Part shown: piece by piece, positions 2,943-26,718 of the stretch
Numbering within the stretch: position 1 is the stretch's first letter
Layout: each line of letters opens with the position of its first letter
Virus record (IMG/VR): IMGVR_UViG_3300045988_091188
Location: 40,568-104,567 of that record
Direction: 5' to 3' (one strand)
Origin: a virus
Length of the DNA stretch: 64,000 nt
Notes under the pieces: model-generated
The model's input: only the letters and a program-made list of their open reading frames with translations
Database searches by the model: none
Told to the model about the DNA's origin: nothing
Program-made: the position numbers and the translations under genes

Positions 2943-2986
2943 ATTATCCACTTCTGCCCAACCGCACGGAAGAAAGGAAACTGCAA

Positions 2987-3753
2987 TGAAACGAGAAGAG
3001 CTCAAACAACACGCGCAATCGCATTACGCAGACATTAAAGTGAGACTCAAGGAAGATACAGATCGCGCAATTATAAACTCTGAAATTTTTGGCCCCAATC
3101 TTCCTTTTCCGCAAAAACCGCGAGAAACCCACCATAATACCTTTTATCTTAAAGACCAAGATAGCGTATCCTGTCTATTCGGTTTAACCGATCGGAGCAA
3201 GACTGCAATCTTAAATTATGCAAGCTATAAACATCCAGGTGGTTATTTCCTTGGAGGTAGCTCCGCACAAGAAGAGGCATTGTGTCACGAAAGCAACCTT
3301 TACCCTATTCTTCTTGCTTTTGATGATACTTATTACGCATGGAATAGACAGAGACTGAATCGAGCCCTATATCTTGATAGAGCTATCTATACTCCTAATG
3401 TAGTCTTTGAAAAAGACGATAGTAGAAAATTAGCTGATGTAATTACTTGTGCTTCTCCTAATTATAGAACAGCACATACTTATCAGCAAGTTCCTCTTTC
3501 TCTAAACAATAGGATAATGGAAGAGAGAATTAATTTTATGTATCGAATTGCCGAGGCTAAGGGAGTGGAAAATTTAATCGCGGGAGCCTGGGGCTGTGGT
3601 GTTTTTATGCAAGATCCATCAACGGTCGCCACCTTGCTCGTAAACGCAGCCCGCAATTATAATATCCCAAATATCTATTTTGCGATTCCAAACCGCAATT
3701 CCCGCAATTTTAGAATTTTCTTGGAGGTTTTGGAAAAATGTTCAAGCAATTAA
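2987..3753 (+). CDS. macro-domain protein of the microbial poly(ADP-ribose) glycohydrolase-like family (TIGR02452/DUF2263-type)
   Basis: SD AAAGGAAA then ATG 2987; motifs GGYFLGGSSAQEEALC...SNLYP and GAWGCGVF typical of the bacterial-type PARG/macro family. Confidence 0.55.
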
Positions 3754-4175
3754 TTATTGCGAGGCGAGACTTAAATATGTCTCCAGGGAAACTTGCCGCA
3801 CAAGTTTCCCATGCTTCTATTGCTTTTCTTTTGGAAAAGTTATATTGGGGAAGTAAAGAAGTTGTTAAAGAAAGAGACGGTCTTATGTATCATATAGGAA
3901 TAAGCCTCGATAGAGACTTATTCCATAATTGGATAGCGGAAGCGGAGACCAAAGTAGTTTGTAGAGCGAAGAATAAGAATGATTTGTTAAAGGCTGTTAA
4001 GATAGCAGAAGAATTAGGATGGGAAGAGAATAAGGATTATTGGCTTATCTATGATGCTTGTAGAACAGAGTTAGAACGCGAAGGCCCGGAAGGGACTTTG
4101 ACGTGTATTGGATTTAGGCCAATGGAGGCGGAAGAAATTGACAAAATTGGGAAGAAGTATCAGCTTTATAATTAA
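3738..4175 (+). CDS. pth2: peptidyl-tRNA hydrolase, PTH2 family
   Basis: GGAGG upstream; LIIARRDLNMSPGKLAAQVSHAS matches the PTH2 catalytic N-terminus. Confidence 0.7.
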   Translation: MFKQLIIARRDLNMSPGKLAAQVSHASIAFLLEKLYWGSKEVVKERDGLMYHIGISLDRDLFHNWIAEAETKVVCRAKNKNDLLKAVKIAEELGWEENKDYWLIYDACRTELEREGPEGTLTCIGFRPMEAEEIDKIGKKYQLYN

Positions 4176-4380
4176 TATAGTTTTGATTTTACTATTGTTG
4201 ACTGCTTGCGTGGAGGAGAACAATCGTTATCCAAGGCTAGAGTATATTCCTACAATGTGGAGATCTGATGCGATTAATATTAAACTAGAGGATGGATATA
4301 TCTTAAAAGGATATGAAACGATAGAAACTGAGGATGGATATAATTTGATTTTTAGTTTTGAGGCAACCGACGATGGATAA
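4108..4380 (+). CDS. putative small lipoprotein (signal peptide then LTAC lipobox)
   Basis: Six-frame ORF; hydrophobic stretch IINIVLILLLLTAC; true start uncertain (overlaps pth2). Confidence 0.3.
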   Translation: MDLGQWRRKKLTKLGRSISFIINIVLILLLLTACVEENNRYPRLEYIPTMWRSDAINIKLEDGYILKGYETIETEDGYNLIFSFEATDDG

Positions 4381-4516
4381 AGTATTAGTATGGTTTGACG
4401 GCAAGCATTATTATAATATATGCGCAGTCTGTGGAGAATTATATCCAATTTACAAAGTAGAAGATCATATTATATATAATTTAAAAAAGAAGTGTAAATG
4501 CGGAGAGAAGAAGTGA
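4373..4516 (+). CDS. small zinc-ribbon protein (47 aa)
   Basis: ATG 4373 overlapping the previous stop; MDKVLVWFDGKHYYNICAVCGELYP...KKKCKCGEKK; TGA 4514-4516. Confidence 0.3.
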   Translation: MDKVLVWFDGKHYYNICAVCGELYPIYKVEDHIIYNLKKKCKCGEKK

Positions 4517-4801
4517 GTTCTTCTCTCTTTTTCGTTATTGAGATTGAAAAGTCGATTTAGATTTTGAAATGGCGTGGCAGAACGATTTCACCAAAAAATT
4601 TCCAGTTTTTCCCAAAATACACGCCCCTCTTTCACATGGTAAAGTATTGAAGTGTAGTTGGCCTCTTTTGCTCGCTAAAGTACGAAAGCAAGAAAGCACG
4701 CCCCTAAAGGAATACGCGCGCGTAAAGGGTTTGTGCAAACTGCACAACAAGATGTTATTTATTTTGTGCAAAAGAGAGAGAAAGAAATTTCAAAAAAACT
4801 A

Positions 4802-4830
4802 TTGACAAGTGAGCGTTTTGGTGGTAAACT
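4802..4830 (+). promoter_or_regulatory. sigma70-type promoter (TTGACA-17-TAAACT with TGn)
   Basis: ttgaca 4802-4807, gtggtaaact -10 at 4825-4830; preceded by TTGTGCAAACTGCACAA palindrome at about 4733-4760. Confidence 0.5.
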
Positions 4831-4897
4831 GGACTTGTCCAGTAGGACAGAGACAAAAGCACGGCACTTTGAAAATTAAAAAATTTCAAAAAAGGTA

Positions 4898-4926
4898 TTG
4901 ACAAACTGCTAAAGGTTTGATACAAT
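4898..4926 (+). promoter_or_regulatory. sigma70-type promoter (TTGACA-17-TACAAT) for the 4980 gene
   Basis: ttgaca 4898-4903, tacaat 4921-4926, 17-nt spacer. Confidence 0.55.
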
Positions 4927-4979
4927 ACAGACAGAACAAAAGAAAACCACACCACAAAAAGAAAGGGAGTCAAAAGAGT

Positions 4980-5354
4980 ATGAAAAAGATTGATTTTACC
5001 AATGAAGATCGAGCCATTATTATGGAGTATATGGCCGCTAAGATGGCTAAGTCTGCGGCGGAGGCGGCGGAGAAAGCAGCTAAGGCTAAGGCTAAAGAGC
5101 TATTCTCCAGATTAGGTAAGGCTTTTAAGGCTACGGACAAAACAAGTTATCTATATGGCACGGTACAAATGCAGGGTAAGGCGAAAGCGGTGGTATATAA
5201 AGAAACTACCGCAAAAGGAACGGTTGACTGGAAAGCCTATGCTATGGCATTAGGCGGGACAGAGGCCGAAGCAGAGCAATTCCGCAGACCTTCCGATATT
5301 CGTACCTCTTTTGATTGGGCGACAAAGACCCAAGAAGAAGAAATTAGAGGATAA
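4980..5354 (+). CDS. hypothetical protein (124 aa)
   Basis: SD AAAGGGAG, ATG 4980 (MKKIDFTNEDRAI...); Ala/Lys-rich N-terminal region. Confidence 0.55.
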   Translation: MKKIDFTNEDRAIIMEYMAAKMAKSAAEAAEKAAKAKAKELFSRLGKAFKATDKTSYLYGTVQMQGKAKAVVYKETTAKGTVDWKAYAMALGGTEAEAEQFRRPSDIRTSFDWATKTQEEEIRG

Positions 5355-5363
5355 CAGTTTATA

Positions 5364-5402
5364 AACCCTGCCTTGCAAAACACAAGGCAAGGCAGGGTTA
5401 TA
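5364..5402 (+). terminator. rho-independent terminator
   Basis: aaccctgccttgc-aaaacaca-aggcaaggcagggtt hairpin followed by a T-rich tail. Confidence 0.6.
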
Positions 5403-5429
5403 ATAATTAAAAGAAAGGGGTATACTATA

Positions 5430-5576
5430 TGTATCAATTACAGGTTTTAGCCAATGAGAAAATGCGCTATTATGAACCATCCACCCTTTCAATGGCAAGA
5501 TGGAAAGCCAGTCACGAGATAGTCAATCCCAATCATTGGATTGTAGATTTATCCAGTGGAGAAATCGTAGATTAAA
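5430..5576 (+). CDS. small hypothetical protein (48 aa)
   Basis: SD AAAGGGG, ATG 5430, MYQLQVLANEKMRYYEP...; TAA stop. Confidence 0.35.
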
Positions 5577-5621
5577 AAGAAGCTGACCTAACGGCTATAC
5601 GGGGAGAAAGGATAAAAGACT

Positions 5622-5924
5622 ATGAACAATTATATTAAGTGGTTCGTTGGGCCTACTTTTAGAAAGCATGAATTTATTAAACTTTTGCGGTATAAGATGA
5701 ATGTGCGTTCCGCAGAGGTAGAGGACGGCATCATCTTAGACCTGGATGCTTTTAATGCCATGCGAGTGGCCTATATGCCACACTGGGCTTATATCAATAG
5801 AAAGTTTATCAATAGCAATCTGCATACCAGAATTGCAAGCGAAGATGAATATAAGATTGCTATGGTTGGAGATACAATCGGTACTGAATGGGTTAAAGAA
5901 CAGGAGGCAAAGAAATGGAAATGA
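5622..5924 (+). CDS. hypothetical protein (100 aa)
   Basis: SD GGGGAGAAAGG then ATG; ORF track. Confidence 0.55.
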   Translation: MNNYIKWFVGPTFRKHEFIKLLRYKMNVRSAEVEDGIILDLDAFNAMRVAYMPHWAYINRKFINSNLHTRIASEDEYKIAMVGDTIGTEWVKEQEAKKWK

Positions 5925-6064
5925 GAATTATTAAGCGGATAGGAGGCGGCATTTGTGCCGCTCTCCTACTCTGGACAGTTCTTAGTTGGGCTGATATAGT
6001 GGCGGATAACTGTGAGCCAAACCCACGGCACAGCGAATACAATATGTTCGTTCTCATGACTAAA
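5921..6064 (+). CDS. small membrane/secreted protein (47 aa)
   Basis: ATGA overlap with the previous stop; hydrophobic N-terminus MRIIKRIGGGICAALLLWTVLSWA. Confidence 0.35.
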
Positions 6065-6079
6065 TAATAGGAGGAAAAA

Positions 6080-6313
6080 ATGTATAGAGGGACTTATATC
6101 GACGCCATGGGCCGCAAGCGCAGAGAGATGGGATATTTCAGTCTTAATAAGCCCACTCTGAATAAACTCCATATACCAGTAATTGTCCAAGCGAGAGATA
6201 AGACAAGTGCGGCGAATAAAATCAATAGGAAATATAAATTGCGTATAAGTCCCAGCAATCTGCGGGAGGTGCCGATGGGCACGGGCTATCTCATGGAAAC
6301 CATGGAGCTGTAA
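6080..6313 (+). CDS. hypothetical protein (77 aa)
   Basis: SD TAGGAGG 8 nt upstream of ATG 6080. Confidence 0.55.
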   Translation: MYRGTYIDAMGRKRREMGYFSLNKPTLNKLHIPVIVQARDKTSAANKINRKYKLRISPSNLREVPMGTGYLMETMEL

Positions 6314-6325
6314 AGGAATAATACT

Positions 6326-6362
6326 TGACTGGCAATCTACACAAAGATTGCCAGTCATTTTT
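6326..6362 (+). terminator. rho-independent terminator
   Basis: tgactggcaatc...gattgccagtca inverted repeat followed by ttttt. Confidence 0.55.
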
Positions 6363-6369
6363 ATGCACT

Positions 6370-6545
6370 TTTCCATATTGACTTTTCGCCGGGCCGCCAG
6401 CGTGCGCCGCGGCCCGAATTTTTATTTATTCGGCAATTTCAACAATTATATGACCGAAAGTTTGTGCAATTCGACGAAAGTTTTTCTCCCGAAATTACTT
6501 GACATTCCTTTTCCCATGTGTTATTATATACTTGTCCAAAGGGAC
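6370..6545 (+). promoter_or_regulatory. early regulatory cassette: GC-rich hairpin, TTCAACAA/TTGTGCAA inverted repeat, TTGACA-17-TATTAT promoter
   Basis: ccgggccgccagcgtgcgccgcggcccg hairpin plus T-run; tttcaacaa...ttgtgcaa; cttgaca-ttccttttcccatgtgt-tattat. Confidence 0.5.
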
Positions 6546-6580
6546 AGGTCACAAAAAGAATTTGAAAGGAAGTAAAAAAA

Positions 6581-6820
6581 ATGACTTTAGATATGGTTGC
6601 TTGGTTACTTTCTCCGCTTGCAGAAGATACTATGTTCTTTGACGGGGAGGGATTCGAAATTATCAATAAGAATACCCAAGCTCATTACCATGAATTACCT
6701 GATGGTAGAATAACTCTGGGAGGAGACGTAATCGAGGTATCTAAGGAATGGGTTCTGGGACTTCAGGTAACCGGCATTGAGGCAAGAGATAACAATTTAA
6801 TCATTTATGTAGATGGTTAA
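6581..6820 (+). CDS. hypothetical protein (79 aa)
   Basis: SD GAAAGGAAG, ATG 6581. Confidence 0.5.
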   Translation: MTLDMVAWLLSPLAEDTMFFDGEGFEIINKNTQAHYHELPDGRITLGGDVIEVSKEWVLGLQVTGIEARDNNLIIYVDG

Positions 6821-6882
6821 GAAAACTTGCGGGAGTGGAGGCCACAAACCTCTACTCCCCACGATAAAAAGGAGGAATAAAT

Positions 6883-7098
6883 ATGATTGCTGTTATTAAA
6901 TTTGAAAGTGCAGAAAAGTCTGTGGAGTTTGGAAACACAATTTGTAATATGGCTGGCTGGTGTTTGGGTCATCCTCTCAATTCCAATGTTACCGGCTGTG
7001 TTTGTACACTTGATTTTAATACCGGCGACAAGCAAGATAGAGCCTTATATAATTATCTGCTAAAAATTGGAGCTTTCGAGGAGGTGGAACTAAAGTGA
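6883..7098 (+). CDS. hypothetical protein (71 aa)
   Basis: SD AAAGGAGG, ATG 6883. Confidence 0.5.
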   Translation: MIAVIKFESAEKSVEFGNTICNMAGWCLGHPLNSNVTGCVCTLDFNTGDKQDRALYNYLLKIGAFEEVELK

Positions 7099-7226
7099 GT
7101 ATTGAGCGTTTACCGCACACATATCCTATCGGCTCCACTGTCTGGACGGATAAGGGATATGGCACAGTTCTACTTCACATTGGTAAATACCATCTGGTTT
7201 GGTTGCAGAGATTAGGGCTGGCGTAA
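7095..7226 (+). CDS. small hypothetical protein (43 aa)
   Basis: GTG start overlapping the previous TGA (GTGA); followed by a gggctggcg...gccggccc hairpin and T-run. Confidence 0.3.
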   Translation: MSIERLPHTYPIGSTVWTDKGYGTVLLHIGKYHLVWLQRLGLA

Positions 7227-7504
7227 TGCCGGCCCTATTGATTTTTTCAAAAAAATATATTATAATAATTATAGAAAAATAAAGAAAGGAGTTTTTCTAA
7301 TGACCTTAGAAGTGCTGAAAGCACTCGTGGTTATTTTGGAGTTCTGTTTGAACTAGGATTCTTGTAAAAATTGTCCTATGTCTCAGTTCTGCCAGAAAAT
7401 GCCTTGCGAGTGGTAAATGTTCCTTCCGATTGTTCTAAATCGGCGATTCCCGTGATGGAGTCGTTTTTCGCACGAGCCTAGGTCACTAGAATTTATTTAT
7501 CAAA

Positions 7505-7738
7505 ATGCAAGAAACTACTTTCTCTCGCAAATTAGATTCAAGTGGTAGAATTATGATTCCGATTCGCTTGCGTGAACAAATGGGACTTACTTCCGGTTAG
7601 GAATACTATTTTACTACTATGGTAAAAGATGGTAGAAAATATATCTGTATTGACTGCGGATCGGTTGATTCCTCGCTTGAAGAAGCTATGAAAATTATCC
7701 AAGCAAACGGATTAAAGATTGTTGAAAATGCCGATTGA
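7505..7738 (+). CDS. AbrB/SpoVT-family (swapped-hairpin) DNA-binding protein with one in-frame TAG
   Basis: MQETTFSRKLDSSGRIMIPIRLREQMGLTSG(TAG)EYYF...; the RKLDSSGRIMIP motif parallels DLGRIVIPKEIR in the 8963 paralog; TAG at 7598-7600 in frame. Confidence 0.5.
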
Positions 7739-7780
7739 CTTCTCAAAAGAAAGGGAGTTGTTGGTATGCAGAAATTAATG

Positions 7781-7812
7781 ACCTCCTGAAATTCAGGAGG
7801 TTCTTTTTTTTT
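7781..7812 (+). terminator. rho-independent terminator
   Basis: acctcctgaaattcaggaggt hairpin followed by ttcttttttttt. Confidence 0.6.
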
Positions 7813-7814
7813 AT

Positions 7815-7975
7815 TCGTTCGCCCGGCCGTGCACCACAGGCGCGGCCGGAATTTTTTATCAAGAGGCAATTTGCACAATTTTAGGCTCGAATTGTTGTGC
7901 AATCTGACGAAAGATTTTTTCCTAAAATCGCTTGACTTTCTGCTTTGCCTGTGGTATATTATTATCAGAAAGAGG
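7815..7975 (+). promoter_or_regulatory. early regulatory cassette: GC hairpin, TTGCACAA-N16-TTGTGCAA operator-like inverted repeat, TTGACT-17-TATATT promoter
   Basis: cccggccgtgcaccacaggcgcggccgg plus T-run; ttgcacaa 7871-7878 and ttgtgcaa 7895-7902; ttgact...gtggtatatt. Confidence 0.55.
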
Positions 7976-8013
7976 GAGACAGAAATACCTCGAAAGAAAG
8001 GAAAGAAAAAATC

Positions 8014-8271
8014 ATGGAAGAAAAGAAAATGATTTTGGTCACGGACGGATACGACGATAAACCTATCTGCGTAGCGTCTAATACCATCGCCGCCCGCAAG
8101 TCTGCTTTGGATTATCTGGAAAATCAATATGACGATGGAGAATGGGAGGCTATTCTGGAAGAAGATGGATATGAAAATCGTGATGACCTTTTCCATGATA
8201 TGATGTTAGGTATGGAAAGTGAATGGGAGCGTTTCAATATCAACTTTGCGGAAGTTTCCTTTGCGGGGTGA
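8014..8271 (+). CDS. hypothetical acidic protein (85 aa)
   Basis: SD AAAGGAAAG, ATG 8014 (MEEKKMILVTDGYDD...). Confidence 0.5.
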   Translation: MEEKKMILVTDGYDDKPICVASNTIAARKSALDYLENQYDDGEWEAILEEDGYENRDDLFHDMMLGMESEWERFNINFAEVSFAG

Positions 8272-8275
8272 GTAT

Positions 8276-8428
8276 ATGACAACTTTTACCATGATAATTC
8301 TGATTGCTTTTGTTCTATGTCTGGTATGGCAATTTGTAGCCGCTATTGAAAGAGATTGCATAGGACTTGAAATCATGTTTGCGGCGGAGATTTTAATGTT
8401 TGCGTATCTTGCAAAAACTTTGATGTAA
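8276..8428 (+). CDS. small hydrophobic membrane protein (50 aa)
   Basis: ATG 8276 close to the previous stop; MTTFTMIILIAFVLCLVWQFVAAI. Confidence 0.4.
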   Translation: MTTFTMIILIAFVLCLVWQFVAAIERDCIGLEIMFAAEILMFAYLAKTLM

Positions 8429-8432
8429 GGGG

Positions 8433-8461
8433 TTGACAAATCGCCCCAACTATGGTACAAT
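8433..8461 (+). promoter_or_regulatory. sigma70 promoter TTGACA-17-TACAAT
   Basis: ttgaca 8433-8438, tatggtacaat extended -10 at 8451-8461. Confidence 0.55.
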
Positions 8462-8523
8462 AAGACCATGGAAGGGGCGACCCCGATAAATAAAAATTAA
8501 AATTAAGAAAGGAAGTTTTGGAA

Positions 8524-8910
8524 ATGCGTGTTAGTAAGGTTGTTCGGGAGTATATTGAAAAGGAAGTTGGAGTAAAGGCTGAAATCAAGAGGCAGGCTGT
8601 CCATGAAACCTTTTCCGCTTATGAGACAGAGTGTAAAATCATGCAGGAGAAAGTTAAGCAGGCGGTAAAAGCCCTTAACGACGAACTTCTTTCGGAGGTT
8701 AAAAACAAGGGGATGAGTTTCCGCAGATATAATGACCGGCTGGTAGAGGCTTGCCAGGATTGTATTTACCCCGCTATGGAGAACGAGAAGAAAAAGGCCA
8801 TGCGGGAAGTTAGCGACTGGGAGAAAAATGCCGTAACGGAAATTATTCTTACGCTTGAGTTGGGTGGTACTAAAGCTGACCTCGAACGGATGTTGAAAGA
8901 ACTGGATTAA
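8524..8910 (+). CDS. hypothetical protein (128 aa)
   Basis: SD AAGAAAGGAAG, ATG 8524 (MRVSKVVREYIEKEVG...). Confidence 0.55.
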   Translation: MRVSKVVREYIEKEVGVKAEIKRQAVHETFSAYETECKIMQEKVKQAVKALNDELLSEVKNKGMSFRRYNDRLVEACQDCIYPAMENEKKKAMREVSDWEKNAVTEIILTLELGGTKADLERMLKELD

Positions 8911-8962
8911 GAAGGGAGGAAGGGAGTGCAAGACTATAAATCTTGCACTCCCGCAGATAAAA

Positions 8963-9424
8963 ATGAAAGCTACTGGAATTGTGCGCCGTATTGATGATTT
9001 GGGCCGGATAGTAATTCCAAAGGAAATCCGTAGAAACCTTCATATTAGAGAAGGCGACCCATTAGAGATTTTTCTTGAAGAAGATGGCGGCGTAGTTTTT
9101 AAGAAATATTCTATAATGGGAGAATTTTCCTCTTACGCTAAACAAATGCAAAATGCCCTTTCATCTAACAGAATCGCCGCGGCTATTTTTGACAATGATG
9201 GAATTTTATGCGGGCCGCGTTCATTTGGAATTACAAGAGTTCCCGATGACTGGATTGATATTCGCAGTTCGGCGACAAAATGGGAAAGTATGTTTATTAC
9301 ACCAATTCTTGTGAATGGCGACCAGGTTGGTTTTATTTGCTATAAAAATAGCAATAACGAAGAATCTGTCCATGACATGGTTAAACTTTCTGCAAGATTT
9401 CTTGCAAATATATGTGAAAGTTAA
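8963..9424 (+). CDS. AbrB/SpoVT-family transcriptional regulator
   Basis: N-terminus RRIDDLGRIVIPKEIRRNLHIREGDPLEIF is the canonical AbrB-N/SpoVT swapped-hairpin motif. Confidence 0.65.
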   Translation: MKATGIVRRIDDLGRIVIPKEIRRNLHIREGDPLEIFLEEDGGVVFKKYSIMGEFSSYAKQMQNALSSNRIAAAIFDNDGILCGPRSFGITRVPDDWIDIRSSATKWESMFITPILVNGDQVGFICYKNSNNEESVHDMVKLSARFLANICES

Positions 9425-9449
9425 AAGAGGGCCGAAGCCCTCTTTTTTA
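9424..9449 (+). terminator. rho-independent terminator
   Basis: aagagggccgaagccctctttttt. Confidence 0.6.
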
Positions 9450-9464
9450 TCCCATTTTTTGAAT

Positions 9465-9600
9465 AGGCTTCTCGACGGCGCGCTAACGTGCGTGGCGCGC
9501 CGAATTTTCTCTTTTGTAGAAGTTGCACAATTTTCCAGCCGAAATTTTGTGCAGTTTGCCTCTTGTTTTCTATCCCGAAATCTGATATACTTTAATCAAC
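9465..9600 (+). promoter_or_regulatory. early regulatory cassette (GC hairpin, TTGCACAA...TTGTGCAG inverted repeat, promoter)
   Basis: gcgcgctaacgtgcgtggcgcgc hairpin; agttgcacaattttccagccgaaattttgtgcag. Confidence 0.45.
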
Positions 9601-9623
9601 CTAAAGAAAGGAAGTAAATCAAA

Positions 9624-10088
9624 ATGAAAAAGATGCTCTGCTTTGATATGGATGGAACAATCGCTGACCTGTACGGCGTGGATGATTGGTTAAAAGATTT
9701 AATGAATGAAAATCCCTATCCATATACAGTCGCCAAACCTCTTTGCGATATAGAAGAATTGAATACCGTTCTTAATAAACTCATTGAGCAGGGCTGGGAA
9801 ATTCGGGTTATCAGTTGGCTTGCAAAAGACAGTTCTAACTCATATAAAACTGCTGTTCGTGACGCAAAGCGCACTTGGCTTGCAAAATACAACTTCCCCG
9901 CACATAAAGTCCACCTTGTGGAATATGGCACAACAAAAGCAAATTGTGTGCGGAAACACTTTGAGCCGGGAATTAGCAATTTCATTTTGATTGATGATAA
10001 TAAAAGTGTGCGGGATGGCTGGCATTTAGGGGAAACAATCGAGCCACATGAAGATTTACCTACGGCCTTATGGCGACTGGTAGAGTAA
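9624..10088 (+). CDS. HAD-superfamily phosphatase (5'(3')-deoxyribonucleotidase-like)
   Basis: Motif I FDMDGTIADL (DxDGT) near the N-terminus; later ILIDDN; 154 aa. Confidence 0.6.
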   Translation: MKKMLCFDMDGTIADLYGVDDWLKDLMNENPYPYTVAKPLCDIEELNTVLNKLIEQGWEIRVISWLAKDSSNSYKTAVRDAKRTWLAKYNFPAHKVHLVEYGTTKANCVRKHFEPGISNFILIDDNKSVRDGWHLGETIEPHEDLPTALWRLVE

Positions 10089-10128
10089 TCCACCAGTCAA
10101 TCTTAAAATAAGAAAGGAAGTTTTGTAA

Positions 10129-10317
10129 ATGAAGATTAGAAAGGTTAATAGGCTTATCCTCAGCGAGGAAGAGCGACAAGTATTGAAAAATGCGTCCATT
10201 CTCATTGGTCAAATTGATCAGGTTATGGCCGACAATGAAATTGATGACGATATTTCGCTTGAAGATTTAAGCTATTGGCTTGACGAGATTATCAATAAAG
10301 AATATCTTGGATATTAA
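10129..10317 (+). CDS. hypothetical protein (62 aa)
   Basis: SD AAGAAAGGAAG, ATG 10129. Confidence 0.5.
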   Translation: MKIRKVNRLILSEEERQVLKNASILIGQIDQVMADNEIDDDISLEDLSYWLDEIINKEYLGY

Positions 10318-10344
10318 GAGGGCTTCGGCCCTCTTATTTTTACT

Positions 10345-10480
10345 CTTTAATATCGTTTGGGCGGCTCGCTGGCGCACGCGGCGAGCCGAGTTTTTGTTTT
10401 TGTCGATGTTGCACAATTTTGGCTTGCAAATTTTGTGCAATTTGCCATCTTGTAATTATCCCGAAAGTATGGTATTATAT
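10345..10480 (+). promoter_or_regulatory. early regulatory cassette (GC hairpin, TTGCACAA-N16-TTGTGCAA, promoter)
   Basis: gggcggctcgctggcgcacgcggcgagccgag hairpin; ttgcacaattttggcttgcaaattttgtgcaa; tcttgt-17-tattat. Confidence 0.5.
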
Positions 10481-10643
10481 ATTTGTCAAGAGGGGAAGGC
10501 CAAGAAATCAAGAGGTCGCGAACTCTTAGAAAGTAAAGGAAGTAAATTTATATTGTGTCGTAAGTCGAGTGAACGCCGTTAGAATAGGCCGTTCTAATGC
10601 CCAGTAGCTTGCAGTAAATCGCAATAAAAATTTCCTTTTCCTC

Positions 10644-10672
10644 TTGACATCAAGCATGATATGTGCTATAAT
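10644..10672 (+). promoter_or_regulatory. consensus sigma70 promoter TTGACA-17-TATAAT
   Basis: ttgaca 10644-10649, tgctataat 10664-10672. Confidence 0.6.
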
Positions 10673-10704
10673 AAACTCAACAAGAGGAAAGGAAGTCAAA
10701 GATT

Positions 10705-11496
10705 ATGATTGATAAGCGTAGACACTATGTTTTGGTGGTTGATACTGAAACTGCTAACACACTGACTGAAACTGACGAAAACGGCAAAGCCCGCATGGAT
10801 ATGAGTTGCGTTCTTGTCTATGATTGCGGATGGGCGGTAGTGGATACCAAGGGCAATATTTATGAAACTGCCAGTTTTGTAAATAGGGACATTTTCAACG
10901 ATGAGCGGGATCTCATGCGGACTGCTTATTATAATTGGAAAATTCCCCGCTATATTGAGGAACTGCGGGCCGGCACTCGTAAAATGGCTACCACTTATGA
11001 AATCCGCCAAGTTATGCTCAATACCATTGAGCGATACGGCATTAAGGAAGTTGCGGCTTATAATGCCAGATTTGACGATAATGCCTTGAGAGTTACACAG
11101 CGTTATGTGACCTACTCCAAGTGGCGTTATTGGTTCCCGTTTGACAGCGTGGAGATTTGGGATATTATGAAGATGACACAGGATGTTATCTGCAATATGC
11201 CCACTTATAAGAAATTCTGTCAGGAAAACGGATATGTCCAGGCTAATGGTGTCCCCCGCAAGACTGCGGAAATCGTGTGGCGGTTTATCTCTGGCAATAC
11301 CGATTTTGAAGAAAGTCATACGGGGCTTGAGGATGTTCTGATTGAGGCGGAAATCATGTGGTATTGTATGCGTCAGCATAAGCCCATGAGAAAGGCCCTG
11401 TATGAGAATAAAAGAGAGTTTCCGCCTATGACAGATTTTCAGCGTCAACTTTCCGCAAGTTTGAAAAATAATCCGACAATTCGGGTAGGGGCTTAA
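10705..11496 (+). CDS. DEDDh-family 3'-5' exonuclease (DnaQ/RNase T-like)
   Basis: Exo I LVVDTETA, Exo II YNARFD, Exo III HTGLEDVLIEAEI with the His. Confidence 0.7.
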   Translation: MIDKRRHYVLVVDTETANTLTETDENGKARMDMSCVLVYDCGWAVVDTKGNIYETASFVNRDIFNDERDLMRTAYYNWKIPRYIEELRAGTRKMATTYEIRQVMLNTIERYGIKEVAAYNARFDDNALRVTQRYVTYSKWRYWFPFDSVEIWDIMKMTQDVICNMPTYKKFCQENGYVQANGVPRKTAEIVWRFISGNTDFEESHTGLEDVLIEAEIMWYCMRQHKPMRKALYENKREFPPMTDFQRQLSASLKNNPTIRVGA

Positions 11497-11523
11497 AGCC
11501 CCGCCCGATAGAAAGGAAAAGAA

Positions 11524-11709
11524 ATGTTTTCAAGACAGTTTACCACTAACCATCTTGACCCCGATTATGTCTATGAGGTTATTCACCTTATGCAGCGGCT
11601 GGGATGGTTTGTTGATGGGCCGACAGAAACCGGACTTTTGACTGTAAATATCCTTCTGGATGATATGCCGCTTTGGGATATGGTTTATAGTTATATGATT
11701 GATATTTAA
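11524..11709 (+). CDS. hypothetical protein (61 aa)
   Basis: SD GAAAGGAAAAG, ATG 11524; followed by a gagggctttacagccctc terminator. Confidence 0.45.
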   Translation: MFSRQFTTNHLDPDYVYEVIHLMQRLGWFVDGPTETGLLTVNILLDDMPLWDMVYSYMIDI

Positions 11710-11744
11710 GAGGGCTTTACAGCCCTCTTATTTTTTTTTATATC

Positions 11745-11930
11745 TAAAAGGTCGACGGCCCGCGGATGGCTGACGCGGGCCGAATTTTTCAATGGTAATG
11801 TTGCACAAAAATTTCGTCCCGTTTTTGTGCAGAATTTTGCACAAAAACTCTCTCCCAAAATTCCGATTTTTTGTGCAATTTGACGCTTGCAATCTGCTTT
11901 TGCTTGTGGTAAAATACATTCAGAAAGTGA
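11745..11930 (+). promoter_or_regulatory. early regulatory cassette with two TTGCACAA/TTGTGCA(A/G) inverted-repeat pairs and a TTGCAA-17-TAAAAT promoter
   Basis: gcccgcggatggctgacgcgggc hairpin; ttgcacaaaaatttcgtcccgtttttgtgcag and ttgcacaaaaactc...ttttttgtgcaa. Confidence 0.5.
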
Positions 11931-11986
11931 GAGAGACGAACGGCAGACAGCGACAGCGAATTTCTCAAAAATCTTTCAAGAATCTC

Positions 11987-12187
11987 TTGACAAGCCTTTG
12001 AAGATGTGCTATAATAAGTACAGAAAACAAGGCAATGCACCTTGAAAATTAAATAAAAAGGGCTTGACAAACTTTCCAAAGTGTGTTACACTATAAGGGA
12101 GGTTGAGAGGGCAAACAAGTAAAGAGCAAAAGTTCTTGAAAAAAGTTTGAAAAACCTCTTGACAAGTACCAAATAGTGTGGTACAAT
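11987..12187 (+). promoter_or_regulatory. three tandem near-consensus sigma70 promoters (11987-12015, 12064-12092, 12159-12187) upstream of the 12227 gene
   Basis: Each is CTTGACAA-17-TATAAT/TACACT/TACAAT with a TGn extended -10 and an A-rich upstream tract. Confidence 0.6.
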
Positions 12188-12226
12188 ATAATCAAAGGAC
12201 AAGGACAGTCCTAAAAACCAGAAAGG

Positions 12227-12637
12227 ATGTATATTATGGACGAGAAGAAAATCCGCATTACCAAGGCCCAGCGTTTTGAGGACATTAAGGCCCTCTTGAC
12301 TGACGGCGAGGTAAAGTATGGCACTACCATCGAGGTGGCCATTACTGTCATTGACCATGAGCTGGAGCTTCTGCGTAAGAAGAATAGCTCCAGCGGTGAC
12401 AAGAAGCTGACTCCCACCCAGCAGGAGAACGAAAACTTTAAGGAGCAGATTATGGAGTATCTGGCTGGTCTGGACGCCGATACCGATGGCGTGACCTGCA
12501 CGGAAATTTTTAAGGCTATTCCTGATCTGACGGCCTATTCTAACCAGAAGGTTGCCGCTCTTGTGCGGCAGTTGAAACTCGATGGTCGAGTAGTCTGCAC
12601 GGAGAAGAAGGGCAAGTCCCTCTTTAAGATGGCGTAA
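12227..12637 (+). CDS. hypothetical protein (136 aa) downstream of the triple promoter
   Basis: SD AAAGGA; ATG 12227 or 12236; followed by a gggcgggg...ccccgccc terminator. Confidence 0.55.
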   Translation: MYIMDEKKIRITKAQRFEDIKALLTDGEVKYGTTIEVAITVIDHELELLRKKNSSSGDKKLTPTQQENENFKEQIMEYLAGLDADTDGVTCTEIFKAIPDLTAYSNQKVAALVRQLKLDGRVVCTEKKGKSLFKMA

Positions 12638-12775
12638 CCCCGTATAGGGCGGGGTGAAAATCCCCGCCCTAACTTATAATATGGGGGTGATATTATATCC
12701 AGTCGCATTAGTGACGCTGAACGGATTGCAAGGTATAAAGCCCTGCAATTAACGCCGGAAGAGGAGGCAGATTTA

Positions 12776-13093
12776 TTGGCCTATGATAAGGCGGTAGAGG
12801 CTGATAAAAAGACTGAATACGATTTACCGCCAGAAAAGGCGAAAATCGCTCAAAAGTTTGCCCATGCTGGAACGCGCAAACAGCCAACCGCATATAAGTT
12901 CACTACACGGCAACGCAAGCCAAACGCCACGAAAGGCGGTATAATTGCGGAATTGGCAGAGTTTTTGGAAAAAAACAGTCAATTCTCTATCGCTGACTTG
13001 TCTATTACTAACAAGGAAAGACAGATTGCGTTTTCTATTGGTGGGGATAGTTTCGAGTTGACGCTTGTGCAAAAGCGTAAGCCGAAGAAATAA
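12776..13093 (+). CDS. hypothetical basic protein (105 aa)
   Basis: GGAGG 8 nt upstream of TTG 12776; C-terminal KRKPKK. Confidence 0.4.
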   Translation: MAYDKAVEADKKTEYDLPPEKAKIAQKFAHAGTRKQPTAYKFTTRQRKPNATKGGIIAELAEFLEKNSQFSIADLSITNKERQIAFSIGGDSFELTLVQKRKPKK

Positions 13094-13149
13094 CGGGGTA
13101 GGGTCGGCCTACCCCGGCCCTACCAGAAAAGAGGCAAGTTATAGTTAGT

Positions 13150-13500
13150 TTGCAGACAAGGGGAAAAGAGTTCCTATATGTCGGACATTATATCGACAAA
13201 AAGGGGCGCTATATTCTCAAGATTGGTACGACAAATGACCTTGAACGCAGAGCCGCAGAGCATACGAGAAATTATAAGCGGGCGCCAGATTACACCATGC
13301 CGGAAGATGGTTCCTTTATCTATGATTGGCATATCAAACTTTCCAAGTATAATACCCTACGATACGAGGATGTAAACCGGACTTTGTGGCAGAATATGGG
13401 AATTGGTCGTTTTATCAGAAATGACCGTTTCTTGTGCGACACTCCCCCGGCCATGGTTACGGTGGTTATTCGCAAGGCATATCCAATAATTCTCAACTAA
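13150..13500 (+). CDS. GIY-YIG nuclease-domain protein
   Basis: LYVGHYIDKKGRYILKIGTTNDLERRAAEH has the GIY...YIG...R...E layout. Confidence 0.5.
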   Translation: MQTRGKEFLYVGHYIDKKGRYILKIGTTNDLERRAAEHTRNYKRAPDYTMPEDGSFIYDWHIKLSKYNTLRYEDVNRTLWQNMGIGRFIRNDRFLCDTPPAMVTVVIRKAYPIILN

Positions 13501-13539
13501 AGAAAAATCTCCCCTTATGGGGAGATTTTTTTTATGCAA

Positions 13540-13665
13540 AATTTTGGGCGGACCGCTTGCGTGCGCCGCGGTCCGAATTTTTCTTCTATTGTCATTTTCA
13601 ACAATTTTGAATTGAAAATTTGTGCAACTTGACAGCTTGACTTTCTCCCGAAAATGTGGTATCAT
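13540..13665 (+). promoter_or_regulatory. early regulatory cassette (GC hairpin, TTCAACAA...TTGTGCAA inverted repeat, TTGACT-17-TATCAT)
   Basis: gggcggaccgcttgcgtgcgccgcggtccg hairpin; ttttcaacaattttgaattgaaaatttgtgcaa; ttgactttctcccgaaaatgtggtatcat. Confidence 0.5.
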
Positions 13666-13691
13666 TTAACCATGGAAGGGAGGTAAAAGAA

Positions 13692-13832
13692 ATGATGAAT
13701 AAACTTAAAAACTCTATCATTCGTTTCTTAATTAAAAGAACTTGCCTTGATATTTCCACTATTTATTCGGTATTAGGACAAAGTACAGAAAAAGAAATGA
13801 AATTTTATATTGAAGATTATTACAGGAGATAA
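13692..13832 (+). CDS. small hypothetical protein (46 aa)
   Basis: Strong SD GGAAGGGAGG then ATG 13692. Confidence 0.4.
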   Translation: MMNKLKNSIIRFLIKRTCLDISTIYSVLGQSTEKEMKFYIEDYYRR

Positions 13833-13837
13833 AAGAA

Positions 13838-14290
13838 ATGGAAAGCTTAAAACAATTTCGTGTTAATTTTCAAGTTACATTTTGGTGTGAAGGTCGCAAG
13901 GGTATCTTCTCTAAGAAGCCTTATAAATTTACGGTATCATTTCGTGATGATATTATGCTTTCTACCTTTTTAATCAATGCTCGAACCGAAAAAGAAGCGG
14001 TTAAAACTGGAAAAAACTATGTTGAAAATATAGTTCAATGTTGGGTTGAACAGTCAGAAGAAAATCAAGCCACCGGCGAATATATGATTTTAACTGGAAA
14101 TATGGCTGATACAAAAAGATTTGAGTGGTCGCCTAAAATCTACGCCATTACTGGGTATGAAATTAAATTTATTTCCTGCGAAATGGTTTGCGACTGGGCA
14201 AAAGAAAGGGTTGAGAGAGCGGCAAGAGAACTGACTATGGAGCAATTTAAGCAAGTTTTTAGTGAAATTCCGGCTGAGATTTTTCATTAA
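13838..14290 (+). CDS. hypothetical protein (150 aa)
   Basis: SD CAGGAG, ATG 13838. Confidence 0.55.
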   Translation: MESLKQFRVNFQVTFWCEGRKGIFSKKPYKFTVSFRDDIMLSTFLINARTEKEAVKTGKNYVENIVQCWVEQSEENQATGEYMILTGNMADTKRFEWSPKIYAITGYEIKFISCEMVCDWAKERVERAARELTMEQFKQVFSEIPAEIFH

Positions 14291-14307
14291 AGAAAGGAGA
14301 TTTTTAG

Positions 14308-14559
14308 ATGGTTGATATTGATTTCAACAAACTGAATGATGAGGAGTTGCAATGGTTGAGTGCTACCGCCTATAAAGAAGTGGCACTTAGAAAACAAAAA
14401 GCGCAAGAGAAAGATTGGAATAGTCTAATCGAAAAGATAGACGAGTATTGTAAAAAGTATGGAGAAATAACTATCGTTGGATATGGAGATGAATTTGTTT
14501 TTGAATCTCCGATACGGTGTAACTGTATAGGAGAAATCAATTTAGAAAACGAGGATTAA
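14308..14559 (+). CDS. hypothetical protein (83 aa)
   Basis: SD AAGGAG, ATG 14308; terminator agagaggctttggcctctct follows. Confidence 0.5.
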   Translation: MVDIDFNKLNDEELQWLSATAYKEVALRKQKAQEKDWNSLIEKIDEYCKKYGEITIVGYGDEFVFESPIRCNCIGEINLENED

Positions 14560-14589
14560 GAAAAGAGAGGCTTTGGCCTCTCTTTTTAT

Positions 14590-15360
14590 TTTATATTTCC
14601 TAAACTCGACGGGCCGGTCGCGGGCGACTCGGCCCGAGTTTCCCCGATCGGACCATAGCGCAAAATTTTCATAGCAACTTGGCCATAACGCAACTTCATA
14701 GCGATTTTCCCGAAATTCATAACGCCCTCTTTCAAACACCGATCGGCCCTACTTTACTTCTTCCTTTATCTAGTTCCGATCGGTCCCGCAATATTGGCTC
14801 TCTCGTCCAATTTTTTATAATAAAAATCTTAAAATTGTCAAGTATTCACAGTACCAAAACTTTCTAAAATACAACTAGCAATAGCAAAGATATAGCTATG
14901 AAAAACAAATACGACCAGAGATTTCTTTCGCGGAGCCGATCGGTTTAACACGATTTTATGATAAAAATAGCTTAAAAATAGAGATTTTAGCTAGATAAAC
15001 CGATCGGCCCGCAATCTTTTACCTTTTGTTATCGCAAAATATAACAAAAAACCTCTAAAATCTTGCAAAAATGCGCGTTTTTCTAACAAATTTACTTAAA
15101 AATAAGTAAAAAATGCCTCGTTTTTCTCAAAATTTCTTGATATTCACAGAATTAAAACCATTAAAGATACAGCAAACAATAGCAAAGATGTTGCTAACTA
15201 TTTGAAAAGGAAAAATCTTTTCCGCGGGATTCCATTAAAGCGATCTTTTTATCTAGACCCGATCGGTTCGACAATATATAAAAAATATAATATAATATAT
15301 ACATAAGATAAAGAAAAGGAGGATTTTAGTTTAAGAAGCATCATAACGCTTTTTCTAACT
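14590..15360. repeat. non-coding region with 6 copies of the palindromic octamer CCGATCGG plus AT-rich repeats (AATAGCAAAGAT x2): candidate replication origin / iteron cluster
   Basis: CCGATCGG at about 14645, 14739, 14771, 14936, 14999 and 15259, and a 7th at 15948. Each contains a GATC core. No credible ORF across about 770 nt. Confidence 0.5.
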
Positions 15361-15373
15361 AAAAGAACTTATT

Positions 15374-15829
15374 ATGAATAGTTATGAGATTATGATTCGT
15401 GATGCAATGCAGAATGGTTCTACTCAGGAGGAGATTGCAAAGGCATTTACTGATGCTATGAATAGAATCTCCGAGGCTAACGCCGCAGACCGCGAGCGAG
15501 ATAATCTTCTGGATGAGATTGAGTCTACTTTCTATGGCAATGTTGATGACTTGTCTCTCACTGAGGATGACGTTGGTCGTGCGGCTGCGCTGGTTTATAG
15601 CAAGAGCAATCCTAAGTGGACAGCAAATGATATTAAGCAGTTTATGCAGGCTATGACTGTAACTGCTAAGACTTCCGCTCGAGTAGTCAATGCAAAGAGT
15701 CTTGATGAAGTAATTGACATTGCTGTTGACTCTATTTCTGATGCTCTCGCAAAGAGTGTGCCTCAGGTTAAGGGTAATACTAAGTCTGATGAAGATAGTA
15801 TTATGGAGTTTTTGAAGCATTTAAAGTAA
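15374..15829 (+). CDS. hypothetical acidic protein (151 aa)
   Basis: ORF track; terminator aaaggagagaagtattgtagcttctctccttttt follows. Confidence 0.55.
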   Translation: MNSYEIMIRDAMQNGSTQEEIAKAFTDAMNRISEANAADRERDNLLDEIESTFYGNVDDLSLTEDDVGRAAALVYSKSNPKWTANDIKQFMQAMTVTAKTSARVVNAKSLDEVIDIAVDSISDALAKSVPQVKGNTKSDEDSIMEFLKHLK

Positions 15830-16009
15830 CAAGAGGAAAAAGATTAAAGGAGAGAAGTATTGTAGCTTCTCTCCTTTTTATATATATTATAATCGCGGAA
15901 GGCTAGGTTTACGATCGTTGTGACGAGTGTTGTGATGGTTCGTACCTAGACCCGATCGGCACCCAACTCCACCATTTTATAAACTCCTTTTAATTTCCTT
16001 TAATTTCTT

Positions 16010-26504: not shown

Positions 26505-26543
26505 TTTAAGAGGACAGACCCAATAGGAGGGCCCTCTTGCTAT

Positions 26544-26657: not shown

Positions 26658-26718
26658 GAAAACATTTGAAAAACTTTTATGAATATGATATAATATTTAT
26701 AGAAAGTAAGAAAGGAAG

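Follow-up and report, generated by a model that had tools for sequence, protein, structure and literature searches.

Why should one and the same intergenic cassette stand again and again between the small genes of a phage, and what reads it? The question is raised by a 64,000-nucleotide stretch of viral DNA (positions 40,568 to 104,567 of IMG/VR record IMGVR_UViG_3300045988_091188; hereafter the window, whose own numbering is used throughout), part of a large phage with 30 transfer RNA (tRNA) genes, a suppressor tRNA with a CTA anticodon and a transfer-messenger RNA (tmRNA). Positions 4400-15500 were read directly, after which scans were made for repeats, promoters, terminators and motifs. Eight related intergenic cassettes, about 150 bp in length, were found between 4.7 and 14.7 kb. 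A full cassette contains, in order, an ordinary terminator, a GC-rich hairpin with a weak T-run (the GC hairpin), an inverted repeat of the form TTGCACAA-N16/N26-TTGTGCAA and an extended -10 promoter of the sigma-A type. The repeated cassette is genuine, and its recurrence greatly exceeds chance. We think it rather probable that the cassette marks an early block in which each transcription unit would be fenced and restarted by one modular cassette, the repeat being its predicted operator. Read in this way, the cassette would constitute a concrete cis-regulatory code, of promoter, operator and insulator, for the early genes of recoded phages of gut Clostridia. To our knowledge, the large stop-codon-recoded phages of these bacteria are uncultured and the timing of their transcription is undescribed.

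Architecture and setting of the cassette

All parts are present together in six units, beginning at 6390, 7823, 9476, 10362, 11756 and 13549. An initial annotation of the same DNA had counted at least seven cassettes; the repeated arrangement that it described is real, but only these six combine hairpin, repeat and promoter. Cassette 1 (4731) has no GC hairpin, and the hairpin at 14610 belongs to an eighth cassette with neither repeat nor promoter. There are 14 occurrences of the 8-mer TTGCACAA/TTGTGCAA in the 64-kb window, where 2.4 would be expected; 12 of them lie inside 4731-13627, and the perfect repeat with a gap of 10-30 nt was found three times against an expectation of zero. With up to two mismatches allowed, eight inverted repeats are recognised (4740, 6438, 7871, 9523, 10409, 11801, 11837 and 13597) and, bar one spurious intragenic match, none elsewhere in the window. 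Perfectly complementary arms, originally claimed throughout, are found in just three of the eight (7871, 10409 and 11837); three more have a single mismatch (4740, 9523 and 11801) and the other two a degenerate left arm, TTCAACAA (6438 and 13597). The arms are separated by N16 in six repeats, by N15 in one and by N26 in one, in place of the N16-22 first described. The extended -10 was correctly called, TG preceding the -10 hexamer in all seven repeat-linked promoters (promoter scan, with that at 9563-9591 read by eye). A TCCCGAAA box often lies within or ahead of the promoter spacer, and a separate ordinary terminator is found 15-25 nt upstream of each GC hairpin.

The block from 4.7 to 14.7 kb encodes about two dozen small proteins, mostly without a match in Pfam or PHROG. 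The recognisable products are SpoVT-like (8963-9424), HAD-like (9624), DEDD-exonuclease-like (10705) and T5orf172 (13150) proteins. Its open reading frames (ORFs) contain no in-frame TAG, with the exception of two small genes at 7300-7740, and its promoters are of the sigma-A type; a different, AT-rich family of repeated promoter-like sequences is spread across the rest of the window. Within the window the inverted repeat is confined to this TAG-free, sigma-A-type block (4.7-13.7 kb). Such a combination fits an early or host-takeover module, the timing being what we infer from it, and on balance the block appears to come from a large, uncultured, TAG-recoded phage of gut Clostridia.

In-frame TAG codons are present in three ORFs outside the block (1304-2408, 36376-42357 and 52271-52669). 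The tRNA array extends from 26429 to 44942, with the suppressor tRNA at 43808-43883 and the tmRNA at 33083-33398. The second promoter-like family, TTGAAAAA…TGATATAATATATATAGAAAGTTAAGGAAAGGAAG, has at least 17 copies, at 7238-7301 and from 15268 to 61914, and is probably a middle or late promoter type.

The inverted repeat and the GC hairpin

Relatives were gathered through an exact-pattern scan of viral contigs and a protein-based scan. They are uncultured phages of 20-220 kb, a wide group whose members share with the window the exonuclease, the HAD-like protein and the products of ORFs 12227 and 12692, and the same repeat-promoter units are present in many of their contigs. Even where the exonuclease homologue has only 30-40% protein identity, the repeat is still found upstream of its gene, and the arms of the repeat keep their sequence while the spacer and the flanks diverge. 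Loss of the half-sites in related genomes, which the initial annotation had named as an observation that would speak against a regulon, is therefore not what is seen, the arms persisting in distant relatives. Repeat-promoter units are also carried by phAss-1 (OQ749652, 'Caudoviricetes code 15 clade'), some of them with divergent, back-to-back promoters 8 nt from each arm; no GC hairpin was found in the phAss-1 units, and the paper on phAss-1 says nothing of promoters or regulators. When the block was compared with GenBank phages by megablast, one 58-nt match was obtained, and tblastn with the exonuclease and the winged-helix protein described below found few cultured relatives.

Two further arrangements were seen in these genomes. 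One repeat unit of phAss-1 is fused to a -10 region of the AT-rich family (locus L321, at 9212). Divergent consensus promoters, with the -35 at 8 or 18 nt from each arm, flank repeats in L321 (3069 and 5272), on the minus strand of L123 (5924) and on the minus strand of L127-L132; the leftward promoter of such a pair would make antisense or short RNAs.

Sites matching a relaxed form of the repeat number 570 in the 3.3 Mb of fetched loci, compared with four in shuffled copies of 120 of those loci. The commonest spacings between the arms are N16, with 32 distinct sites, and N26, with 12, every other spacing being represented by 0-6 sites; the loci counted were fetched by protein homology, hence without bias in spacing. 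Each 8-mer is itself nearly palindromic (TTG-YR-CAA), and the centre-to-centre distance is 24 or 34 bp. The gap between the right arm and the -35 was measured for 235 oriented sites with a strong downstream promoter, corresponding to 132 clusters at 80% identity. It is 8-9 nt in 73 clusters, 18-19 nt in 25, 29-30 nt in 10 and 43-44 nt in 4, these classes together accounting for 112 of the 132; the first three place the repeat centre near -60, -70 and -81, respectively. For cassettes 1 to 7 of the window, the gaps are 30, 29, 29, 8, 9, 8 and 9 nt, with the repeat centre near -81 or -60. Steps of ten bases, both between the arms and toward the promoter, point to a protein that binds on one face of the helix and works with RNA polymerase, not to an RNA hairpin. 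We predict that the TTGCACAA repeat serves as an operator for a protein bound to one face of the DNA, and it is probably a real regulatory site.

The possibility that the repeat is itself an RNA or DNA hairpin, or a terminator, was ruled out by arms that do not covary (among 93 distinct imperfect repeats, 165 arm deviations are uncompensated and 8 compensated), by the 10-bp spacing step and by the lack of a T-run after it. A literature search for the 8-mers returned primer matches only, and we know of no fit between the repeat and the motifs of Rex, CRP/FNR, CodY, CcpA, BirA, PurR, NrdR, LexA, WalR or TyrR. In some cassettes a Spo0A-box-like TGACGAA follows the right arm; it may be just a decayed -35.

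The GC hairpin is a conserved 27-nt element, CGG-NN-CGC…GCG-N'N'-CCG-A(A/G)TTT. The pattern CGG-N21-CCGARTTT is found six times in the window against 0.04 expected, and a seventh, variant copy lies at 7823. The stems are of 8-10 bp, with calculated energies of -17.7 to -22.3 kcal/mol, and are followed by AA or AG and then by T3-6. In a set of 36 distinct copies from the window and its relatives, pre-filtered for pairing, 96% of cells are paired and seven of the nine pairs have changed on both sides. Double-change cells number 61 in this set compared with 14.5 in shuffles, a value of 61 being reached in none of 500 shuffles, and sliding the register destroys the signal. A second test, anchored only on the closing triplets and the tail, found at least five of the six inner pairs in 35 of 38 CGG-N21-CCGARTT sequences, as against 19 of 183 other CGG-N21-CCG sequences. 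This covariation means that the hairpin is kept by selection on its structure.

The same hairpin had at first been taken for the terminator of the cassette. Its GC stem is indeed stable, but an ordinary terminator already lies upstream of each copy, and the covarying element behind it appears to be more than a simple terminator; most likely it acts as a second stop or an insulator. A search of positions 4000-16000 against Rfam 15 gave six weak matches, all far below the gathering score.

As to the sign of regulation, six strong sigma-70-type promoters in the block (4898, 8433, 10644, 11987, 12064 and 12159) have no repeat. They match the consensus at 10-12 of 12 positions, compared with 9-11 of 12 for the repeat-linked promoters, and A-rich, UP-like upstream tracts, read by eye, are found on the former and not on the latter. 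Because the repeat-linked promoters have weaker hexamers and no A-rich upstream tracts, we lean towards a factor at the repeat that would help these promoters at the start of infection. Weak cores with repeat centres at -60, -70 or -81 resemble activator-dependent class I promoters; later shut-off by a phage protein is possible. In phi29, protein p4 uses this geometry for activation as well as for repression. In the mechanism that we propose, the upstream unit would stop at the ordinary terminator, backed by the GC hairpin with its weak T-run. A dimer-of-dimers protein, predicted to occupy one helix face of the operator, would touch or displace RNA polymerase in the region of the UP element and the alpha C-terminal domain, co-regulating at least seven early promoters, and transcription would restart from the extended -10 sigma-A promoter that follows. 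The earlier proposal of a single regulator for an early regulon is supported to the extent that one operator, judged by its arms, spacing, phase and confinement to the block, is common to a set of early units.

The individual cassettes may now be described; terminators, hairpins and promoters are all on the plus strand, and no strand is assigned to the operators. The operator of cassette 1 (4731-4771) has an extra half-site TTGTGCAA (4731-4738) ahead of CTGCACAA-N16-TTGTGCAA (4740-4771), and is followed by the promoter at 4802-4830 (TTGACA-17-TAAACT, TG). A repeat-free tandem promoter with an A-rich UP-like tract upstream (4898-4926; TTGACA-17-TACAAT, TG) precedes gene 4980-5354. Cassette 2 opens with an ordinary intrinsic terminator (6326-6362; 13-bp stem and T-run) and continues with the GC hairpin (6390-6423; CGGGCCGC…GCGGCCCG plus AATTTTT), the operator (6438-6469; TTCAACAA-N16-TTGTGCAA, two left-arm mismatches), a TCCCGAAA box (6487-6494) and the promoter (6499-6527; TTGACA-17-TATTAT, TG), after which comes gene 6581-6820. 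In cassette 3, the ordinary terminator (7780-7811) is followed by the variant GC hairpin (7823-7857; CCGGCCG…CGGCCGG plus AATTTTTT), a perfect TTGCACAA-N16-TTGTGCAA operator (7871-7902) and the promoter (7932-7960; TTGACT-17-TATATT, TG) ahead of gene 8014-8271. Cassette 4 comprises a terminator at 9424-9450 (AAAGAGGGC-CGAA-GCCCTCTTT and T-run), the GC hairpin at 9476-9509, the operator at 9523-9554 (TTGCACAA-N16-TTGTGCAG, one mismatch) and the promoter at 9563-9591 (TTGTTT-17-TGaTATACT), in whose spacer a TCCCGAAA box lies at 9573-9580; gene 9624-10088 follows.

Cassette 5 has its ordinary terminator at 10315-10341, its GC hairpin at 10362-10395, a perfect N16 operator at 10409-10440 and its promoter at 10450-10478 (TTGTAA-17-TATTAT, TG; TCCCGAAA box 10459-10466 in the spacer). 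A repeat-free consensus promoter (10644-10672; 12 of 12 matches, TG) then precedes the DEDD-exonuclease-like gene 10705-11496. Cassette 6 is distinguished by a double operator (11801-11878), whose first repeat (11801-11832) is N16 with one mismatch and whose second (11837-11878) is N26 and perfect; the ordinary terminator (11707-11739) and GC hairpin (11756-11789) lie before it and the promoter (11887-11915; TTGCAA-17-TAAAAT, TG) after it. Three repeat-free, near-consensus promoters in tandem (11987, 12064 and 12159, together covering 11987-12187) precede gene 12227-12637. In cassette 7, ordinary terminator (13503-13538), GC hairpin (13549-13582), operator (13597-13627; TTCAACAA-N15-TTGTGCAA, with its degenerate left arm) and promoter (13637-13665; TTGACT-17-TATCAT, TG; TCCCGAAA box 13646-13653 in the spacer) are followed by gene 13692-13832. 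Cassette 8 (14560-14643) has just two elements, its ordinary terminator at 14560-14592 and its GC hairpin at 14610-14643, and opens a non-coding, CCGATCGG-rich region.

Several smaller features accompany these elements. The TCCCGAAA box is found on the plus strand at 6487, 9573, 10459, 13646 and 14708, lying in the -35/-10 spacer of promoters with a gap of 8 or 9 nt and otherwise upstream of the -35; it is kept in relatives, and in the window by itself it is only weakly enriched (6 copies, with 2.3 expected). Directly past the -10 of cassettes 1 and 2 (4831-4850 and 6528-6550), the transcript would begin with a small conserved hairpin, ACTTGTCC-(AGTA/AAAG)-GGACAG, and other units have GTCAAGAGGG near the transcript start; both may be 5' stabilisers. 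Strong promoters stand in tandem with no gene between them at 11887-12187 (four before 12227), 4802/4898 and 10450/10644, and such tandems may be what shuffling has left of emptied cassettes, or may serve to set dosage.

Bacterial sites and candidate binding proteins

An exact scan for TTGCACAAA-N14-TTTGTGCAA, made on one genome per species, located the 32-bp motif at no fewer than 120 genome loci, nearly all of them in Clostridia (Oscillospiraceae, Acutalibacteraceae, Ruminococcus, Eubacteriales and Lachnospiraceae). Five of these at least 120 loci have genes in common with the phage block, and most have no phage genes nearby. Among the listed matches, recurring contexts are a divergent pair of genes for a TetR-like regulator and a class-III-aminotransferase-like protein (12 loci), a 43-amino-acid protein, where 6 nt separate the repeat from a consensus promoter (8 loci), an ECF-like sigma factor (5 loci), and sugar-transporter and GH5-like genes, all of these names being readings of translated sequences with no family library behind them. 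Other, unseeded sites in the bacterial loci also favour N16. The motif appears to serve as a cis element both in the phages and in the clade of their probable hosts; given more than 100 mostly phage-free bacterial loci, a regulator private to the phage is no more likely than a factor of the host or a family of factors common to both. The motif points to an undescribed regulon in the abundant gut Oscillospirales. It could also be used to locate the early regions of such phages, and possibly to aid host prediction.

In two bacterial contigs the repeat lies 14-20 nt after spoVT (L271, 4242-4273; L206, 1302-1333); half-sites are also present upstream of the host spoVT in L271 and absent there in L206. 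The repeat in both precedes a conserved membrane-protein gene, with a gap to the -35 of 33 nt, and L271 has a third half-site 4 nt from the -35. L245 (Ruminococcus bromii ATCC 27255) contains three repeats (560, 1129 and 1252) within 700 bp of a repetitive non-coding stretch, adjoining an ORF of 269 amino acids that by eye resembles a tyrosine recombinase. The TetR-like regulator beside 12 host sites was set aside as a binder: no regulator stands beside the repeat in the other host contexts, and usual TetR operators differ from it in geometry.

What protein, then, might read the repeat? Our best single guess, a tentative one, is a tetramer of the AbrB/SpoVT type, from the host, the phage or both. 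The host AbrB or SpoVT would act together with the phage protein encoded at 8963, and the TAG-gated product of 7505 would be a later modulator. Two AbrB-family genes had been reported in the block from the outset. That at 8963-9424 (plus strand) is clearly of the SpoVT/AbrB family, with an AbrB-type N-terminal domain (MazE_antitoxin, 9.6e-12), a C-terminal SpoVT_C match below the Pfam cut-off (1.1e-4) and an N-terminal region of about 85 residues that is 61% identical to SpoVT of two bacterial contigs. The other (7505-7740, plus strand; 77 amino acids) resembles AbrB/MraZ only weakly, with a match that falls short of the Pfam cut-off, and its reading frame includes a TAG (7598-7600). Its gene lies behind a promoter of the AT-rich type (7238-7266), as does an ORF for a Cys-rich protein of 38 amino acids (7300-7416, TAG at 7354-7356), both inside the otherwise TAG-free block. 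Most 7505 homologues carry exactly one TAG, at codon 25, 32 or 40, aligned with Gln or, in some others, with Arg, Glu, His or Ile. The pattern suggests that a TAG has been selected more than once in the family, with synthesis gated by the suppressor tRNA.

If the phage proteins were responsible, the SpoVT-like tetramer from 8963 and/or the 77-residue 7505 protein would bind the repeat and switch the early units off on accumulation, each symmetric N-domain dimer sitting on one 8-mer and synthesis of the 7505 protein being delayed until the suppressor tRNA is made. Near-palindromic 8-mers at N16 or N26 would fit a protein with two dimeric DNA-binding modules, as AbrB/SpoVT tetramers are; a SpoVT-like protein and a small AbrB-like one are among the phage's products, and the host spoVT stands beside the repeat in two loci. 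The single TAG at three different glutamine positions in 7505 homologues, and the location of the gene behind a non-early promoter type, also agree with this scheme. However, Bacillus subtilis AbrB binds bipartite TGGNA motifs whose AT-rich gap spans 4-5 bp, in any orientation (PMC3738160), a motif which does not match TTGCACAA-N16-TTGTGCAA. None of 91 SpoVT/AbrB-domain homologues of 8963 has the repeat within 400 bp upstream, giving no sign of autoregulation; 6 of 18 loci with a full-length SpoVT-like gene are without the repeat, and there is no AbrB-like gene in the roughly 10 kb of repeat-rich L012, L061, L110 and L113. We regard this scheme as unlikely. Much the same can be said of the product of 12227-12637 (plus strand), a DNA-binding candidate absent from the initial annotation, which might bind the repeat and set or close the early programme. 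Its AlphaFold2 model (predicted local distance difference test score, pLDDT, of 86) has N-terminal helices and a C-terminal winged helix that best matches the DNA-binding domain of PerR/Fur, Z-alpha, ArsR, MepR and TubR, with E-values that are weak (best 4e-3). The family is found in 57 loci, among them the distant, repeat-rich L012, L061 (twice), L113 (twice) and L110, and is present in every distant repeat-rich locus inspected; the repeat lies some 80-330 bp upstream of the gene in several distant loci, and in the window the gene follows the only double operator and four tandem promoters. Set against this, the protein has no sequence match in Pfam, PHROG or the PDB and no named homologues, and its family looks phage-only, so that it cannot account for more than 100 bacterial sites. 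Furthermore, an 8-bp near-palindrome is short for a helix-turn-helix dimer, just 13% of homologues (tblastn) have the repeat within 400 bp upstream, and co-occurrence with the repeat is no better than for the exonuclease or HAD-like gene. A role for this protein at the repeat seems to us unlikely.

An unrelated host regulator, that is, an unnamed global factor of Oscillospirales and related Clostridia whose site the phages have copied to tie early transcription to host physiology, is a possible answer, if still one with the weight of probability against it. The identical 32-bp motif in the bacterial genomes, the ordinary genes that it fronts there and the extra unseeded N16 sites all favour such a factor, as does the fact that only host proteins are present at injection; weaker cores at repeat-linked than at repeat-free promoters also agree with it. 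On the other hand, no factor can be named, we know of no motif that matches, and the gaps at host sites (often 6, 22-25 or 32-35 nt) are broader than and unlike the phage series. Co-occurrence profiling does not separate the candidate binders: the winged-helix, exonuclease, HAD-like, 12692 and AbrB-like genes all follow one lineage. A composite of these ideas, in which the repeat is the operator of an uncharacterised global regulator, maybe AbrB/SpoVT, common to gut Oscillospirales and TAG-recoded phages, and in which a suppressor-tRNA-gated phage AbrB paralogue closes the early regulon, would be attractive and is improbable as a whole. Were a shared AbrB/SpoVT-type regulator to be real, the phage early programme would be wired into a host physiological or sporulation circuit, as that of phi29 is to Spo0A; were the paralogue gated as suggested, stop-codon recoding would be linked directly to a transcriptional timing switch.

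A number of points weigh against the proposed fenced and restarted block and against its preferred AbrB/SpoVT-type binder. The functions of operator, hairpin and promoter are all deduced from sequence. Cassette copies within a genome share ancestry, as do orthologous copies in relatives, and the conservation counts are to that extent non-independent. There is a minor, off-phase class of gaps of 33-35 nt (9 clusters), and the 21-bp step from 8-9 to 29-30 nt may partly reflect decay of a proximal promoter followed by acquisition of a new one, not selection for phase. Downstream of three cassettes lie strong repeat-free promoters (4898, 10644 and 11987-12159), so that control of the repeat-linked promoter may have little effect on expression. 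The GC hairpin of relatives frequently starts 3-4 nt past a consensus extended -10 (TGgTATAATggcCGG…), that is, at the transcript 5' end, an arrangement which a simple backstop terminator leaves unexplained; it is seen in L127-L133, L123, L150, L152 and L161, for example at 5214 in L128 and at 17614 in L130, and there the hairpin would form a transcript 5' end or yield a tiny terminated RNA. The mismatch with the known AbrB motif, the absence of the repeat upstream of all 91 homologues of 8963 and the broader gaps at host sites, given above, belong here too. Finally, co-occurrence tracks lineage only: of 26 repeat-positive loci, 24 have the winged-helix gene, 25 the exonuclease and 24 the HAD-like gene.

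Recombination, known systems and neighbouring features

When the window was compared by blastn with its closest relative, L121, homology was found to end at 6583, 8009, 9565/9578 and 13666, the 3' ends of cassettes 2, 3, 4 and 7, with unrelated or far more divergent cargo after each break. The cassettes cross-match one another, both within and between genomes, and because of this similarity they would also act as recombination linkers that swap downstream cargo genes. Could recombination be all that they are for? On such a reading the cassettes are conserved through copying and exchange, and the inverted repeat has no regulatory protein. The breakpoints and cross-matches just described fit it, and a T5orf172 (GIY-YIG-like) gene lies inside the block at 13150-13500. 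Hitch-hiking does not, however, explain the N16/N26 spacing, and the 10-bp steps to the -35 over 132 clusters, the retention of arms amid diverging spacer and flanks, and the conserved sites at orthologous bacterial loci are likewise left unexplained. A module for recombination only seems to us very improbable.

The model for such a module is the promoter-early stem-loop (PeSL) cassette of T4-type phages (Arbiol et al. 2010, PMC2839356; Comeau et al. 2014, PMC4122927), for which mini-circles show recombination in T4-type myoviruses. As in PeSLs, a repeated intergenic module of about 100 bp joins a strong early promoter of the sigma-70 type to a stem-loop terminator, is concentrated among small orphan genes (here eight cassettes in 4.7-14.7 kb), has its stem-loop upstream of the promoter or just past the -10, and coincides with indel or replacement breakpoints between related phages. 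Unlike PeSLs, the present cassettes belong to a code-15 clade phage of Clostridia and not to a T4-like phage of Gram-negatives, carry an extra operator of 32 or 42 bp that is phase-locked to the promoter, and have as their stem-loop a specific 27-nt GC hairpin, covarying and closed by fixed pairs, placed after a separate ordinary terminator. By analogy, they are best described as counterparts of PeSLs and not as members of that group: they are PeSL-like cassettes of a new phage lineage, to which a phase-locked operator has been added. The idea of regulatory cassettes as linkers that shuffle orphan genes would in this way be extended from T4-type phages to an unrelated, Gram-positive phage lineage.

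Parallels to the operator itself may be drawn with several other systems. Sigma-A early promoters with an upstream inverted repeat are also a property of phi29, a lytic phage of Firmicutes, whose protein p4 acts through the RNA polymerase alpha C-terminal domain, activating or repressing according to core promoter strength, and whose early promoters have host Spo0A boxes embedded in them. Its sites are nevertheless unrelated to the present repeat (CTTTTT-N15-AAAATG for p4 and TGNCGAA for the Spo0A box), and no p4 homologue was found. A site centre near -60, -70 or -81, moving in 10-bp steps, is reminiscent of class I activators such as CRP, with sites centred at -61.5, -71.5 and -82.5, and recognition units set N16 or N26 apart recall two-unit operators such as those of ComK, whose AT-boxes are spaced by 8, 18 or 31 bp, and NikR (GTATGA-N16-TCATAC). 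The sequence of the site differs, however, from those of CRP/FNR, ComK and NikR. The host-takeover module of SPO1 likewise consists of numerous small early genes, all of which have a strong sigma-A promoter, a strong ribosome-binding site and a terminator, and mycobacteriophage stoperators, which are asymmetric repressor sites of 13 bp lying within transcription units of temperate phages, are similarly repeated many times along the genome. The early promoters described here share an upstream palindromic repeat; we know of none at the early promoters of SPO1. AbrB/SpoVT regulators are comparable as tetramers with two dimeric DNA-binding modules, with the difference in motif already noted (TGGNA; PMC3738160).

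Three neighbouring features may also be recorded. Directly beyond cassette 8, a non-coding region of 630 bp (14640-15270) contains six of the window's nine CCGATCGG palindromes, of which 0.28 are expected per window, as well as CATAGCG/CATAACG-like repeats. It is kept in relatives (L121, 16183; L123, 16310; L130, 17614), where the preceding hairpin directly follows a consensus promoter, and it may be an origin or a genome-end feature. Just upstream of the block, 2923-4175 encodes a protein with a microbial-type poly-ADP-ribose glycohydrolase (PARG) domain and a PTH2 peptidyl-tRNA hydrolase. Inside the block, the conserved ORF 12692-13093 (30 loci, up to 88% identity) has no in-frame ATG or GTG near its conserved N-terminus, and the TTG at 12776, its listed start, would cut off conserved sequence; initiation here may be non-standard, or may be coupled to the gene before it.

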